Shown here: piece by piece, positions 107-62,844 of the stretch
How the letters are laid out: each line of letters starts with the position of its first letter
Position numbering within the stretch: the stretch's first letter is position 1
Assembly: GCA_021324825.1 (NCBI GenBank)
Contig: JAJPII010000029.1
Coordinates: 15,825-79,824, forward strand
DNA: 64,000 bases
Reading direction: 5' to 3'
Source: Spartobacteria bacterium
Lineage (GTDB): Bacteria > Verrucomicrobiota > Verrucomicrobiia > Chthoniobacterales > Chthoniobacteraceae
The notes under the pieces: generated by a model
Told to the model about the DNA's origin: nothing
Databases searched by the model: none
Seen by the model: only the letters and a program-made list of their open reading frames with translations
Translations under genes and position numbers: made by a program

Positions 107-871
107 ATGGATATACTGCTCCACACCATCGCCCTGGAACCGGCCCGCTGGACCCCTCAACGCGTCTCGCGTCCCCTCGCCCAACTGCTCCCGGCAATCG
201 CCGAGCGCGGCTTCAAGCAACTGGAAATCTACGAGCCTCATTTGCGCGACGAGGCCGAATGGCCGGAGATCATCGCAACCCTCACCTCACTCGGCTTGAA
301 GGCTGAAATCCTAAGTTCGTATCTCGACTTGAAGACTTCGGAAAACTTCGACGACCTCAAACGCCGCCTCGACGCCTTCGGTTTTACAAAGGCGCGCATC
401 TTCCCGAGCGCGCCCGCCACCGAGGAAGGCATGAACACGCTGGCCGTCCGCCTGCGCCGCCTTTCCGCGCGCATTCCCGGCGTGGAGATCCTGCTGGAGA
501 CGCACGACGGCTCCCTGGCGGACGATCCGCCCCTGCTGGTCCGCATGATGGAAGAGCTTTCCCATCCCCGGATCGGGTTGCTTTATCAGCCGACCTTCTT
601 CGACGCGGAGCGCTCCCTGCGGCAATTCGAACTCGAGAAACCGTTCATCCGCCACCTCCATCTGCAAGGGCGCCGGGCCGATACTTCCTTCACCCGATTG
701 GAAGATGGCCTGGTCCCCTGGTCGCGGATCATCACGGAACTGAGCCCGGAGGTGAACGCCACGCTCGAATTCGTCCCGTGCGCGGTCTGCCCGCCGGAGC
801 AATTCGACCTGGCCGCCGCGTTGAGCGAGGCCCGCTCAGAAACGGACTACGCGCGCTTATTGGCGATGTAG
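107..871 (+). CDS. Sugar phosphate isomerase/epimerase (xylose isomerase-like TIM barrel family), tentative
   Basis: ORF 53..871. The likely start is the ATG at 107 (MDILLHTIALEP...), just after an upstream frame closes with TAA at 99-101. Size (~254 aa) and motifs (LEIYEPHL, LLETHDGSL, HLHLQG) fit the TIM-barrel family. The last codons and the TAG stop lie inside a REP element. Confidence 0.5.
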   Translation: MDILLHTIALEPARWTPQRVSRPLAQLLPAIAERGFKQLEIYEPHLRDEAEWPEIIATLTSLGLKAEILSSYLDLKTSENFDDLKRRLDAFGFTKARIFPSAPATEEGMNTLAVRLRRLSARIPGVEILLETHDGSLADDPPLLVRMMEELSHPRIGLLYQPTFFDAERSLRQFELEKPFIRHLHLQGRRADTSFTRLEDGLVPWSRIITELSPEVNATLEFVPCAVCPPEQFDLAAALSEARSETDYARLLAM

Positions 872-894
872 AGGCCGCTGTGCCAGCCGCCTGG
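867..894. repeat. REP hairpin unit (single, one stem mismatch)
   Basis: The sequence tgtagaggccgctgtgccagccgcctgg matches the consensus TGTAGAGGCGGCTGTGCCAGCCGCCTGG seen at the other loci. The shared flank ttggcgatgtagagg also occurs at 13261-13275. Confidence 0.8.
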
Positions 895-6135: not shown

Positions 6136-6217
6136 TTGTAGAGGCGGCTGTGTCAGCCGCCTGGAGCGCGGGGGGCGGGGAAGGTTCGACAGGCGTTTGG
6201 CACAAACGCCTCTACAA
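6136..6217. repeat. REPIN (inverted REP doublet)
   Basis: Left unit ttgtagaggcggctgtgtcagccgcctgg. Right unit gacaggcgtttggcacaaacgcctctacaac, in inverted orientation. The outer TGTAGAGG/CCTCTACA arms are inverted repeats. Confidence 0.8.
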
Positions 6218-13267: not shown

Positions 13268-13329
13268 TGTAGAGGCGCTTGTGCCAAGCGCCTTTTTTTG
13301 GATAGGCGGCTGGCACAGCCGCCTCTACA
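13268..13329. repeat. REPIN doublet immediately 5' of the RAYT gene
   Basis: tgtagaggcgcttgtgccaagcgcct + T7 spacer + aggcggctggcacagccgcctctaca. Nearly identical to the doublet at 13858-13920. Confidence 0.85.
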
Positions 13330-13400
13330 ATGGTGGGGCGTTGTGGAATGGCCGAGGAAGGGCTCGCTTTGGCGTTCCCGGAGTGGCAGGTTTGTTGACG

Positions 13401-13853
13401 ATGGCTAACCGCCCGTTACGTCTCGACCGGGTTTTTCAGACGCATGGGGAGGCTTTGTTTTTCGTGACGTTCAATACGCATAGGCGCGCGGCCATTCTGG
13501 CATGCGAGGCGGTCCATGCCCGCTTTGTCGCTTTCGCGCGGGAGTCGGAGGGGCGGAATATCGCGGTGGGGCGCTATGTGATCATGCCGGATCACGTGCA
13601 TTTGTTCGTGCAGGGCGGGGCGGGGTTCGTCCTTTCCGGCTGGATTCGGATGCTGAAACGCAGTCTCTCACAGGCAATCGCCGCCGGACCGCCCCACTGG
13701 CAGGAGGGGTTTTTCGATCACCTGGTGCGCCACGATGAGAGTTACGCCCGGAAATGGGATTACGTGCGGGATAACCCGAGGCGCGCGAAGCTGGTGCGGG
13801 AGGAGGAGGAGTGGCGGTACCAAGGTGAGGTCGTTGTTATTGACCGGGCGTGA
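13401..13853 (+). CDS. REP-associated tyrosine transposase (RAYT, IS200/IS605-like Y1 HUH transposase family)
   Basis: ORF 13236..13853. The 5' part of that ORF translates the REPIN, so the ATG at 13401 (MANRPLRLDRVF...) is preferred. HUH motif PDHVHLFV (cac gtg cat at 13593-13601). C-terminal WDYVRDNPRRAKL carries the Tyr motif. REP doublets flank both sides. Confidence 0.8.
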   Translation: MANRPLRLDRVFQTHGEALFFVTFNTHRRAAILACEAVHARFVAFARESEGRNIAVGRYVIMPDHVHLFVQGGAGFVLSGWIRMLKRSLSQAIAAGPPHWQEGFFDHLVRHDESYARKWDYVRDNPRRAKLVREEEEWRYQGEVVVIDRA

Positions 13854-13857
13854 TGGT

Positions 13858-13972
13858 TGTAGAGGCGCTTGTGCCAAGCGCCTTTTTTTGGGATAGGCGG
13901 CTGGCACAGCCGCCTCTACAACCGGGGATAGGCGGCTGGCACAGCCGCCTCTACAACCGGCCTCTACAATGC
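13858..13972. repeat. REPIN doublet plus a perfect 35-bp tandem duplication of the right REP unit
   Basis: tgtagaggcgcttgtgccaagcgcct, then ggataggcggctggcacagccgcctctacaaccgg twice in tandem (13891-13925 and 13926-13960), then a partial third copy cctctacaatg. Confidence 0.85.
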
Positions 13973-14482
13973 TTCGGTTAGCCGGATGGCTGTCGCGGCG
14001 AGGTTTTCGATGCGGGTTCTGACTTCGGCGTTGATTTCGTCGCCGGCGAAGTCGGCGCCGGAGCCGTAGACGTACCGGGGGATGATGACGCATTCGAAGT
14101 CGAGCATGAGGCTGTTGGCCAGGGGCATGGCGGACATGTAGCTGCGGTGGCCGCCCGCGGCGCAGAGGAAGCCGACGATTTTGTCGTTCCAGGCTTCGCC
14201 GGTGAGTTCGATGAGGTTTTTGGCGAAGCCGCTGGTGGAGTAGTTGTAGATGGGGACGGCGAGGATGACGCACCGGGCGGCGGCTATGCGGGCCTGGAGG
14301 GGGGCGACGAGGGGATGCCCGTAGGCTTCGGCGGCGTCGCAGAAGGGGAGGGGCAGGCGGCGGGCGTCGATGTACTCGGCTTGGACCCGGGTGAGGAGGC
14401 GCTCGTGCAGGGCGAGGGCGAGGGCGCGGCTGCGGCTGGCGGGGCTGAGGCTGCAACTGATGATGAGGAAGTCGCCTTTCAC
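13964..14482 (-). CDS. NAD(P)H-dependent FMN reductase family protein
   Basis: 172-aa ORF. LIISCSLSPASRSR at the N-terminus and AVPIYNYSTSGFAKN are typical of the FMN_red family. The stop codon TAG is supplied by REP-derived sequence (cattgtagagg). Confidence 0.75.
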   Translation of the reverse strand: MKGDFLIISCSLSPASRSRALALALHERLLTRVQAEYIDARRLPLPFCDAAEAYGHPLVAPLQARIAAARCVILAVPIYNYSTSGFAKNLIELTGEAWNDKIVGFLCAAGGHRSYMSAMPLANSLMLDFECVIIPRYVYGSGADFAGDEINAEVRTRIENLAATAIRLTEAL

Positions 14483-38513: not shown

Positions 38514-38542
38514 TTGTAGAAGCGGTTGTCCCAGCCGCCTGG
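38514..38542. repeat. Degenerate REP unit
   Basis: tgtagaagcggttgtcccagccgcctgg has 3 mismatches to the consensus. It lies in the helicase/LysR intergenic region, at the left edge of the lower-GC block. Confidence 0.6.
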
Positions 38543-59822: not shown

Positions 59823-59861
59823 GAACTGGAGCGTGTCATGAACTTTTGGCCCGCTCTTGGT

Positions 59862-59936
59862 TGTAGAGGCGGCTGTGCCAGCCGCCTGGAGCGCGGGTAG
59901 GAAAGTCGGTAGGCGGCTGGCACAGCCGCCTCTACA
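59862..59936. repeat. REPIN (inverted REP doublet, consensus copies)
   Basis: tgtagaggcggctgtgccagccgcctgg + 20-nt spacer + aggcggctggcacagccgcctctaca. It shares the cctggagcgcggg extension with the 6136 copy. Confidence 0.85.
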
Positions 59937-59984
59937 ACGACAACGACGTCGCTCAGGGAGAGCGGCCAAAAGTGCATGACCCCT

Positions 59985-61439
59985 CTAGGAAGCCGCGAGC
60001 GGCTCGCCTTTGCGCGAACGCATGAACTGGAAGAACTCGAGGCCTTCGCGCAGACGGCGCTGCATCACGTGGGCGTCCTGGAGCATCGTCCAGAGGATGC
60101 GCGCGATGGGGCGCGGACGGAAGTAGTAGGACTTGTAGAACTTCTCGACGTATTCGAATATCTGGTCGCGGTCCAAGCCGTCGTATTGCAGGACGGCGGT
60201 CTGCTGGCCCCTGGCGTCGGTCAATTCGACGGGGCCGCTGAACCAGTTGTTCTCTTTCGCCTGCTTGTAAAGCTCCGTGCCGGGATACGGCGCGGCCAGG
60301 CTCACTTGAAGCGAGAACGGGTCGATCTCCTTGGCGTACTCGATGGTCTCGCGGATCGTCTGGTGCGTTTCGCCCGGCAGCCCGAGGATGAACGTCCCGT
60401 GGATGGCGATGCCGAGCTTCTTGCAGTTCTTCGTGAACTCGCGGGCTTGCTCCAGCCGGACGCCCTTCTTGATGTTGTCGAGTATTTTCTGGTTGCCGCT
60501 CTCGTAGCCGACCAGGAGGAGGCGCAGGCCGTTGTCGCGCATGACCTTGAGGGTCTCGTAGCTGACATTGGCGCGGGCGTTGCAACTCCACATGATGCCG
60601 AGTTGCCCGAGCTTCACCGCGATCTCGCGGGTGCGGACGGGGTAGGCCGTGAAGGTGTCGTCGTCGAAAAAGAATTCCTGCACCTGCGGGAAGAGCGACT
60701 TGGCGTGTGCCATCTCGCGGTAAACGGCGTCGGCCGATTTGGCGCGGTACTTGTGCCCGCCGACCGTCTGCGGCCAGAGGCAGAAGGTGCATTGCGCGGG
60801 GCAGCCCCGCCCCGTGTAGTGCGAGACGTACGGGTATTTCAGATACCCGATGACGTAGTTCTCGACGGTCAGGTCGCGCTTGTAGACATCCATCACGCTC
60901 GGCAGGTCGTCGAAGCTCTGGATGAGCTGGCGCTCCTGGTTATGGACGAATTTCCCCTCGCGGCGATACGAGACGCCGTCGACGGATTCCAGGGGTTTCC
61001 CCTCGGCGAGTTCCTTGCAGGTAAAGTCAAATTCCTTGCGGCATACGAAGTCGATGGCTTCCGAGGCGCCAAGCGTCTCTTCGGGAAGGACGGCGGCATG
61101 GGCGCCGACGAAGCCGACCGCGGTATCCGGCGACTGGTTCTTGATCGCTTCCGCCAGCATGGCGTCGCCGTGCAGGGTCGGGCTGCTCGTGTGGATGACG
61201 ACAAGTTCGTAGTCGCGCGCAATCTTCAAGACATCGTCCACGGACAGGCCGTCCGGGGGCGCATCAACGAGCCGGCTTCCCTCCACGAGCGCAGCCGGCT
61301 GTGCGAGCCACGTCGGATACCAGAATGAGCGGATTTCCCGCTTCGCCTGGTACCGCGAACCCGCCCCGCCATCGAAGCCCTGCCACGAAGGCGGGTTGAG
61401 GAATAAAGTCTTTTTGTTTTGCACGGGGTTCTTTTGCAC
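59985..61439 (-). CDS. hpnJ: B12-binding radical SAM protein, HpnJ-like (hopanoid-associated)
   Basis: 484 aa. LFLNPPSWQGFDGGAGSRYQAKREIRSFWYPTWLAQPAAL, radical SAM motif YTGRGCPAQCTFCLWPQ and LLVGYESGNQKIL match my recollection of HpnJ (TIGR03471). Confidence 0.75.
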   Translation of the reverse strand: MQKNPVQNKKTLFLNPPSWQGFDGGAGSRYQAKREIRSFWYPTWLAQPAALVEGSRLVDAPPDGLSVDDVLKIARDYELVVIHTSSPTLHGDAMLAEAIKNQSPDTAVGFVGAHAAVLPEETLGASEAIDFVCRKEFDFTCKELAEGKPLESVDGVSYRREGKFVHNQERQLIQSFDDLPSVMDVYKRDLTVENYVIGYLKYPYVSHYTGRGCPAQCTFCLWPQTVGGHKYRAKSADAVYREMAHAKSLFPQVQEFFFDDDTFTAYPVRTREIAVKLGQLGIMWSCNARANVSYETLKVMRDNGLRLLLVGYESGNQKILDNIKKGVRLEQAREFTKNCKKLGIAIHGTFILGLPGETHQTIRETIEYAKEIDPFSLQVSLAAPYPGTELYKQAKENNWFSGPVELTDARGQQTAVLQYDGLDRDQIFEYVEKFYKSYYFRPRPIARILWTMLQDAHVMQRRLREGLEFFQFMRSRKGEPLAAS

Positions 61440-61576
61440 TCTGCCATGGGGCGCGTCAAGTCCTTTCGGACCCTGGCGAGCCGTTCCTAAGGGGTGTCAT
61501 GCATTTTTTGTCCGCAGGGATGCGTTCTCGTTGCCTGAAGACTGGGAACGGTCCGGCGCTTTGGTATTGCCTCCCT

Positions 61577-61604
61577 CCAGGCGGCTGGCACAGCCGCCTC
61601 TTCA
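61577..61604. repeat. REP unit (single, reverse orientation)
   Basis: ccaggcggctggcacagccgcctcttca, with one mismatch in the outer arm. Confidence 0.75.
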
Positions 61605-61629
61605 ACCCAACCCAAGAGCGGGCAAAGTT

Positions 61630-62844
61630 CTAGGTGGAGGGCCGCTTGCAGAGATCGGCGTACAAGGCGTGGGTCTGCGCGGCGATGGCCGACCAGCTGA
61701 ACTTTTCCACGGCGCGCTTTCTGCCCGCTTTGCCGAACCGCTCGCCGAGCGCGGGGTCGGCCATGACCTGGTTGACGCGGGCGGCAAGGTCGCGCGCGAA
61801 CTGGTCGGGGTTGGTCGGCTCGAAGGGGCTTTCTTTCATCTGCTCGACCGGGACGAGGAACCCGGTCTCCCCGTCGACGACGACTTCCTTTATGCCGCCC
61901 ACGGCGCTGGCGACGACCGCCGTCTCGCAAGCCATCGCTTCCAGGTTGATGATGCCGAACGGCTCGTAGATCGAGGGGCAGCAAAACACCGAGGCGTGCG
62001 AGTAGAACTCGTAGACGGTCTTTTTGTCGACCATCTCCTCGATCCAGAGGATGTCGGGCCGGACTTTGCGGGCGGCCTCGACGGCGGCGGCCATCTCGCG
62101 GGCGATCTCCGGCGTATCCGGCGCGCCGGCGCAGAGGACGACCCGGAAGCCGGGGTTCATGTAACGGACGGCGTTGACGAGGTGGACGATGCCCTTCTGC
62201 CGGGTGATGCGCCCGACGAACAGGAGAAACGGTACGTTCGGGTCGATGCCGTATCTGGCGAGCGCCGCCGTGGATTCGACCTTTTGGTATTCGGAGAGGT
62301 CGATTCCGTTGTGGATGATCTTGATCCGCTCCTCCGGTACGTCGAAAAGCCGGAGCACGTCGGCCTTCGTGTCATTGGAGACGGCGATGACGGCGTCGGC
62401 CATCTCGATGGCGGTCTTCTCCAGCCAGCAGGTGAAGTCGTAGCCGCCCGCGAGTTGTTCCCGTTTCCAGGGCCGGAGCGGTTCCAGGGAGTGGACGGTG
62501 AGCGCCATCGGGATGCCGTAATTCAACTTCGCGAGGATGCCTCCGAAATGGCTGTACCACGTATGGCAATGGACGACATCGGCGTCGATGGCCGTCGTGT
62601 TGAAATCGACGCACCGCCGGATCGCGCCGAAGACCGAGCGCAACGGCTTGGGACAGGTGAAGCCGCCCGCATCCAGGGGAAAGCCCTGGACTTTGAGGTT
62701 TTCCAGCGCCTGGGACTGGTCGCCGAACGCGCGGACTTCCACGTCCATGATCTTCGCCAACTCCCGGCTGAGGTAATCGACATGGACGCCCGCGCCGCCA
62801 TAGACGTGGGGAGGATATTCGTTGGTTAGAAACAAGGTTTTCAT
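61630..62844 (-). CDS. glgA: GT4 glycosyltransferase, glycogen synthase (Corynebacterium-type GlgA)-like
   Basis: 404 aa. Motifs LTNEYPPHVYGGAGVHVDYL, HCHTWYS, FVGRITRQKG, PSIYEPFGIINLEAMA. Confidence 0.7.
   Translation of the reverse strand: MKTLFLTNEYPPHVYGGAGVHVDYLSRELAKIMDVEVRAFGDQSQALENLKVQGFPLDAGGFTCPKPLRSVFGAIRRCVDFNTTAIDADVVHCHTWYSHFGGILAKLNYGIPMALTVHSLEPLRPWKREQLAGGYDFTCWLEKTAIEMADAVIAVSNDTKADVLRLFDVPEERIKIIHNGIDLSEYQKVESTAALARYGIDPNVPFLLFVGRITRQKGIVHLVNAVRYMNPGFRVVLCAGAPDTPEIAREMAAAVEAARKVRPDILWIEEMVDKKTVYEFYSHASVFCCPSIYEPFGIINLEAMACETAVVASAVGGIKEVVVDGETGFLVPVEQMKESPFEPTNPDQFARDLAARVNQVMADPALGERFGKAGRKRAVEKFSWSAIAAQTHALYADLCKRPST

Follow-up and report, generated by a model that had tools for sequence, protein, structure and literature searches.

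A RAYT gene flanked by REP hairpins and the dispersed REP elements of a Spartobacteria genome

The RAYT gene and its flanking hairpins

The window analyzed in this study is a stretch of 64,000 nucleotides (C44:15825-79824 in assembly coordinates) from the genome of a Spartobacteria bacterium of the order Chthoniobacterales, a draft of 3.30 Mb in 47 contigs with a GC content of 62.6% and a completeness of 94.5%. At positions 13268-13972 it carries a gene for a REP-associated tyrosine transposase (RAYT) that is bracketed by repetitive extragenic palindromes (REPs), as had been pointed out in an earlier note made from the sequence alone. The positions given in that note for the open reading frame (ORF), the flanking doublets, the 35-bp duplication and the partial unit, as well as its count of 12 REP units at seven loci of the window, all proved accurate. 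The locus comprises the following features:

13268-13329 (no strand assigned): 5' flanking REP heterodimer, consisting of REP_A at 13268-13292 (+), the spacer TTTTTTTGGATA and an inverted REP_B at 13305-13329
13401-13853 (+): predicted RAYT gene, 150 aa, single-copy, with the HUH motif H65-V-H67 and with Y121 aligned to the catalytic Y115 of E. coli TnpArep
13858-13920 (no strand assigned): 3' flanking REP heterodimer, consisting of REP_A at 13858-13882, the spacer TTTTTTTGGGATA and an inverted REP_B at 13896-13920
13891-13960 (no strand assigned): perfect 35-bp tandem duplication (13891-13925 = 13926-13960), which adds a second inverted REP_B at 13931-13955
13960-13971 (no strand assigned): partial REP tail GCCTCTACAATG of 12 nt, whose CTA (13964-13966) serves as TAG stop codon for a convergent flavin mononucleotide (FMN) reductase-like gene (13964-14482, -)

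Judged by its sequence, 13401-13853 encodes an HUH/Y1 enzyme of the domesticated type that belongs to the RAYT family and is present in a single copy. It passed the curated equivalog model NCBIfam NF047646 (REP-associated tyrosine transposase, REP_Tyr_transpos) with 86.1 bits at a cut-off of 80, the Pfam domain Y1_Tnp was found just over threshold, and the top sequence match in the PDB is E. coli TnpArep (4ER8, E = 5e-8), with whose H59/H61 and Y115 the residues H65/H67 and Y121 align. The residues H65, H67, Y115 and Y121 are invariant across 24 homologues and the reading frame is intact; because the homologues are 149-152 aa long, the ATG start of the gene appears to be right. An AlphaFold model of the protein (pLDDT 86) likewise has 4ER8 as its top fold match (TM 0.70, rmsd 2.4 A), followed by the transposases of IS608 and ISDra2. 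The draft genome yielded one match each to NF047646 and PF01797, which bears out the earlier assignment of a single-copy RAYT, and multiple RAYT copies with terminal inverted repeats are absent from the draft. No tnpB-like or tnpB-sized ORF adjoining the gene is present in the ORF list of the window, and a promoter scan found no sigma-70-like promoter upstream of it.

The two flanking doublets are nearly identical (62-63 bp) and have the same orientation, the 3' doublet beginning only 4 nt past the stop codon of the RAYT gene. In both, REP_A (TGTAGAGGCGCTTGTGCCAAGCGCC, + strand) is followed by a T-rich spacer of 12-13 nt and by an inverted REP_B that reads GGCGGCTGGCACAGCCGCCTCTACA, the master sequence of REP_B being TGTAGAGGCGGCTGTGCCAGCCGCC. 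REP_A and REP_B differ at two stem positions, where the partner bases change too, so that the 8-bp stem is perfect in both. The REP unit thus consists of T-GTAG-AG, an 8-bp stem and a 3-nt loop (folding free energy -10.4 kcal/mol, z = -4.7), and the flanking doublets, folded as single-stranded DNA, reach z values of -7 to -8. An Rfam search with the hairpin array returned only a sub-threshold chance match to a microRNA model. Exact copies of REP_A are limited genome-wide to the two that flank the RAYT gene, with one degenerate relative at C23:20095. Together with the T7 run of the spacer, REP_A scored as an intrinsic terminator on the + strand; the 5' copy was flagged by the terminator scan, and the 3' copy, with the same hairpin and T-run, fell just under its T-count rule. 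REP_A with T7 thus reads as an intrinsic terminator on the 5' and 3' sides of the RAYT gene, where it probably insulates the gene and keeps its expression low.

REP elements across the genome and known REP/RAYT systems

REP units were counted by an exhaustive Hamming (mismatch) scan that allowed at most five mismatches to the master 25-mer, with palindromic double counts removed. The REP_B master occurs in 100 exact copies and in 77 copies with one mismatch, and about 215 units lie within five mismatches, in comparison to three matches, all at five mismatches, in a shuffled genome. These counts are lower bounds, as REP units are enriched at the contig ends of the draft, where 14 units lie at most 300 nt from an end (about 2 are estimated by chance); this enrichment indicates that the repeats break the assembly and that the true copy number is higher than the one counted. 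The most abundant 16-mers of the genome are REP sequences (142 copies) and are present in both RAYT flanks, in agreement with the bracketing of the gene by REP doublets that the earlier note described; REP is the dominant repeat of this genome. Occurrence of the most abundant 16-mer in the RAYT flanks is the diagnostic of Bertels et al. 2017 (PMC5581495), where Group 3 RAYTs have on average 140 copies.

The 215 units are distributed over 171 loci, which comprise 128 single REPs, 41 inverted doublets and 2 tandem arrays. GTAG tails point outward in 41 of 41 doublets, and the REP-to-REP spacing is most often 46-50 nt. We judged extragenic placement by the length of spanning open frames, without a gene caller: the open frame spanning a REP has a median length of 573 nt, compared to 1635 nt at random positions, and since REPs are thus depleted from long open frames, they are predominantly extragenic. 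Beyond the dispersed REPs lie conserved outer modules, first TAGAGCGTGTCATGCACTTTT and then GCCCGCTCTTGGT or CTGAGCGGCGTCGTTGTCGT, in mosaic combinations. REP_B is usually embedded in composite palindromes of about 160 bp that resemble bacterial interspersed mosaic elements (BIMEs) or miniature inverted-repeat transposable elements, in which two REP_B units enclose a spacer of 46-50 nt. The doublets that flank the RAYT gene are a conserved special form, namely REP_A/REP_B heterodimers with a short T7 spacer and without outer modules. While the genome-wide count revealed a master sequence with a cloud of mutants, as expected for a population of REPINs (REP doublets forming hairpins), the flanking doublets proposed to represent this population differ from its dispersed members.

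A second hairpin variant, TGTAG(G/C)GGCGGTTGTGTCAACCGCC, was observed in a longer repeat at C15:270719 and 272091, C3:240261 and C20:32680. Two contig ends share this longer repeat with 98% identity over 104 nt, and it may mark the border of a larger element present in several copies.

Ton-Hoang and colleagues are said to have described in 2012 a REPtron in E. coli, in which tnpA_REP is accompanied by flanking REP/BIME elements. The locus reported here resembles the E. coli REPtron in its single-copy Y1/HUH enzyme, for which TnpArep is the best match in both sequence and fold, and in having REPs upstream and downstream of this gene, each with a GTAG on the 5' side of a GC-rich hairpin (Messing et al. 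2012, PMC3479197); the mosaic structure of the dispersed repeats is reminiscent of the E. coli BIMEs. Unlike in E. coli, the stem is perfect over 8 bp with a 3-nt loop, and each flank pairs two different stem variants around a T7 spacer. Sequence identity between the two proteins is only about 22%, and the RAYT described here shares neither the C-terminal tail nor the H123 ligand of TnpArep. TnpArep needs GTAG for binding and cleavage and uses Y115 as its catalytic residue (PMC3479197); its cleavage specificity is CT. By analogy with this enzyme, the RAYT described here would bind the hairpin together with the 5' GTAG in single-stranded DNA, would cleave through a 5'-phosphotyrosine link (Y121, with the metal held by H65/H67) and would rejoin the strands, and this cleavage and rejoining would disperse and/or maintain the repeats.

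Similarities are also evident to the REPIN-RAYT systems of Pseudomonas and Enterobacteria (Bertels & Rainey 2011; PMC5581495; RAREFAN), which share with our system the most abundant 16-mer in the RAYT flanks (142 copies in our case), inverted REP doublets with a less conserved spacer, and a master sequence with a mutant cloud. In contrast to those systems, which belong to another phylum, singles make up 128 of 171 loci here, the inserted unit is a composite of about 160 bp with outer inverted repeats, and the RAYT showed neither vertical nor syntenic conservation. Within the same phylum, GTAG REPs and RAYTs have been reported for Opitutus terrae (Di Nocera et al. 2013, PMC3733652), whose hairpins also form head-to-head and tail-to-tail dimers and also touch coding regions; O. 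terrae belongs to the Opitutales and not to the Chthoniobacterales, and the likeness concerns the GTAG tag, the dimer arrangements and the contact with coding regions. The earlier remark that such systems are barely described in Verrucomicrobiota is thus only half true. Of 301 genomes sampled from the phylum, 167 contain NF047646-like genes, 95 of them above the curated cut-off and some with at least 12 matches; as far as sequence models can tell, RAYT-like genes are common and often multi-copy in Verrucomicrobiota. A literature search found no papers mentioning both REPs and Chthoniobacter. Altogether, this locus and this genome show most of the testable features that define the REPtron of E. 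coli and the REPIN-RAYT systems of Pseudomonas; a conserved position was not seen at the distances compared, and as to the inverted doublet as the replicating unit, 41 doublets stand beside 128 single REPs.

Distribution among relatives and genomic context

We compared the source genome with 40 related genomes, among them G001, a closed genome of the same genus. G001 contains no RAYT homologue and only 2 weak REP matches, compared to 217 in the source genome. Among the 40 relatives, the REP is carried only by G019 and G037, which also encode the best-matching RAYT homologues (57% and 53-58% identity, respectively); in G019 the REP directly flanks the RAYT homologue, and both genomes contain more than one RAYT copy or fragments. 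Thus, the distribution of the REP tracks the RAYT clade, as anticipated for a true REP/RAYT pair, with low-copy exceptions in the genome G338 and in Chthoniobacter flavus. The closest homologues in a large protein collection, with 78% and 70% identity, the latter from a metagenome-assembled genome (MAG) of Chthoniobacter sp., are accompanied by REP_A-type and REP_B-type hairpins on both sides. Next to more distant RAYT homologues lie other hairpin repeats, particular to each of them and in several cases GTAG-tagged. Many Chthoniobacterales records contain REP_B as an exact 25-mer, among them those of Chthoniobacter flavus Ellin428, Candidatus Udaeobacter and Terrimicrobiaceae. With 3-18 REPs per genome elsewhere (six Chthoniobacterales genomes counted and G019) versus about 215 here, the REP has undergone a lineage-specific expansion in the source genome; the REP/RAYT pair is widespread in Chthoniobacterales and unusually expanded in this bacterium.

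At G019:C23:64900-67760 we also observed two internally deleted RAYT copies, 2.4 kb apart, in which residues ~36-92 are missing. Each of them sits between REP doublets of a GGCGGTTG variant.

The domesticated character ascribed to the RAYT in the earlier note agrees with its single copy, but not with vertical inheritance, as the gene is absent in G001 and its 78% and 70% homologues are found in different neighbourhoods. At the distances compared (same genus; 70-78% homologues), long-term vertical co-inheritance of the RAYT is not seen. Synteny with G001 extends from ~14019 to 38375 of the window, with the RAYT/REP cluster at its left limit and the REP at 38515 at its right. The FMN-reductase-like gene of G001 faces an oxidoreductase gene in direct convergent orientation. 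In the source genome this oxidoreductase gene is located on another contig and is immediately followed by a REP element (C27:59075-59200). REPs were therefore found at three of three synteny breakpoints examined. Reading of the G001 sequence further showed that the C-terminus of the FMN-reductase-like gene product is shorter in the source genome than in the G001 orthologue.

Outside the RAYT cluster, the window contains the following REP units:

867-891 (+): single REP_B, 1 mismatch to the master
6137-6216 (no strand assigned): REP_B and a third stem variant (GGCGTTTG/CAAACGCC) as an inverted doublet, the units lying at 6137 and 6192 with a 30-nt spacer
38515-38539 (+): degenerate single REP with Y module and spacer, 3 mismatches, marking the right end of the 24-kb stretch of synteny with G001
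59826-59988 (no strand assigned): complete 163-bp composite with outer inverted repeats, REP_B at 59862-59886, a 25-nt spacer and an inverted REP_B at 59912-59936
61580-61604 (-): single REP_B in a composite without partner REP, 1 mismatch

Five of the 12 units belong to the RAYT cluster. The high local density noted before is only a modest excess, with 12 units versus 4.2 expected per 64 kb or, in terms of loci, 7 versus 3.3 (P = 0.05). At one orthologous site, an empty-site comparison with G001 showed that the 163-bp composite at 59826-59988 replaces 11 nt of the G001 sequence, and its terminal CTAG provides the stop codon (59985-59987) of an hpnJ-like gene; the region 61467-61666 is too diverged from G001 for an empty site to be defined.

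Age of the elements, alternative explanations and significance

In the earlier note, the perfect duplication and the local density had been taken to suggest a recently active REPIN population, a suggestion that our data do not support. Dispersed elements are 81% identical at the median, and no pair is more than 95% identical over at least 75 nt once the two arrays of tandem units and an unrelated, larger repeat are set aside. When 28 doublets were aligned, the REP arms were 96-98% identical to the consensus, the spacer 83% and the outer modules 64-72%. Had the cores decayed like the spacers, about 1% (0.83^25) of the 25-mers would be unchanged, whereas 46% were observed; selection of units by their similarity to the master cannot explain this value because units with 0-1 mismatches outnumber those with 3-5 by about 7:1. 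The dispersed population is therefore not young: its REP cores are near-perfect, its spacers and outer arms have drifted, and there is no sign of recent whole-element copying.

The loss of elements seems to proceed through deletions and not through point mutations: some doublets have shortened spacers of 25-35 nt, 13 doublets have collapsed to a single hairpin with a GTAG tail on each side, and others have lost precisely one REP. About 21 single REPs without a partner share the junction GGC|AAC or GGCGGC|AAC (e.g. C13:20080, C38:7978, C15:177300, C47:83406), which corresponds to the loss of GTAGAGGCGGCTGTGCCA(GCC) from the G of GTAG with a microhomology of 1 nt and can affect either arm. The spacers of these loci are as similar to each other (0.70) as they are to doublet spacers (0.70), which lends no support to a recent shared origin. 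In addition, duplications of the GTAG tail (units of 8-12 nt) are located directly 5' of at least eight REPs, including the partial tail at 13960-13971 (other examples are C8:35063, C17:67305, C20:77883, C34:28064 and C27:94036), and a 21-nt duplication of this kind (L025 6454-6520) is found in the Chthoniobacter MAG immediately after the stop codon of its RAYT gene (70% identity).

The perfect 35-bp duplication next to the RAYT gene is a tandem event restricted to this site, where the locus meets the neighbouring gene. The chances are about even that this duplication and the adjoining partial unit arose by slippage or unequal exchange at the hairpin array, or during assembly, and are no sign of RAYT activity or of an active population. 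The event is local and head-to-tail, a similar tandem with 33-bp units exists at C20:91356-91413, and dispersed identical copies are lacking. However, short GTAG-tail duplications recur at no fewer than eight loci and beside the RAYT of another genome, and the REP-loss junction at the G of GTAG is shared by ~21 loci; such recurrent junctions and tail duplications hint at a site-specific process and not at random slippage. Whether they are in vivo footprints of cleavage and strand transfer by the RAYT is rather doubtful. If they were, they would provide a natural map of the cut sites of a non-proteobacterial RAYT, and the enzyme would excise single hairpins and keep the REP cores homogeneous while the rest of the element drifts, so that the unit under enzyme control would be the hairpin and not the whole REPIN.

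Alternatively, the host might keep the REPs for functions of its own, such as terminators, mRNA stabilizers or protein-binding sites, with the RAYT being an inactive or incidental neighbour. The contrast between near-perfect cores and drifted spacers and outer arms looks like a constraint on the hairpin, REP_A with its T-run scores as a terminator, elements are situated at gene ends and even supply stop codons, and a few REP copies persist in some genomes without a close RAYT homologue. Yet the catalytic residues of the RAYT are invariant and its frame is intact, the REP_A/REP_B pair moves with the gene into different neighbourhoods of other genomes, G001 lacks both the gene and the REPs, and the T-run is missing from most dispersed REPs. 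We thus consider a purely host-driven maintenance improbable, although use by the host and dependence on the RAYT can both hold.

An ordinary autonomous insertion sequence of the IS200/IS605 family is hardly conceivable: the family (IS608, ISDra2) shares with this locus the HUH/Y1 fold and Y1_Tnp domain, the recognition of hairpins in single-stranded DNA (present here on both sides of the gene) and a guide tetranucleotide 5' of the hairpin, the synteny with G001 breaks exactly at the RAYT locus and G019 and G037 harbour more than one copy or fragments, but we rejected this explanation because the gene is single-copy in the source genome, its product reached only 21 bits with the IS200 NCBIfam model (cut-off 55) while passing the RAYT model, no tnpB-sized ORF is adjacent, the flanks are a short repeat found more than 200 times without the gene, and the fold is nearer to TnpArep than to the TnpA of IS608 or ISDra2; the multi-copy autonomy, the distinct left-end and right-end hairpins and the frequent tnpB of this family were not seen.

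Taken together, the locus very probably is a "REPtron", in which the RAYT gene and the REPs around it belong to a REP/RAYT system that is genuine but ordinary. Several observations weigh against this view. The RAYT has A129 at the position of the TnpArep metal ligand H123; with the gene absent in G001 and its 78% and 70% homologues in unrelated neighbourhoods, it has no conserved position; the Udaeobacter genome G338 contains 7 REP matches without a RAYT homologue at E <= 1e-15, and Chthoniobacter flavus contains 4, with a closest RAYT homologue of only 41% identity. In addition, the dispersed elements are diverged, the REP counts are lower bounds from a fragmented draft, and the orientation of single REPs relative to the local GC skew, which is weak in this genome, shows no significant replication-strand bias (17/38 versus 27/35, P = 0.18).

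REP/RAYT systems as such and their occurrence in the phylum have been reported before, and as a discovery our finding is incremental; of interest to specialists are the composite structure of the dispersed unit, the flanking heterodimers that resemble terminators, the expansion specific to this lineage and the junctions that recur at the GTAG boundary. Work on REP/RAYT systems has so far been confined almost entirely to Gammaproteobacteria, and the locus described here is a clean and compact case from soil Verrucomicrobia (Chthoniobacterales). It offers a test of the REPIN model, with the doublet as replicator and vertical co-inheritance, outside the Proteobacteria, a test of whether RAYTs homogenize or excise single hairpins, and a view of how repeats shape genome structure, for example at synteny breakpoints and stop codons. 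For the annotation of these genomes, the REP elements explain assembly breaks and odd gene ends.

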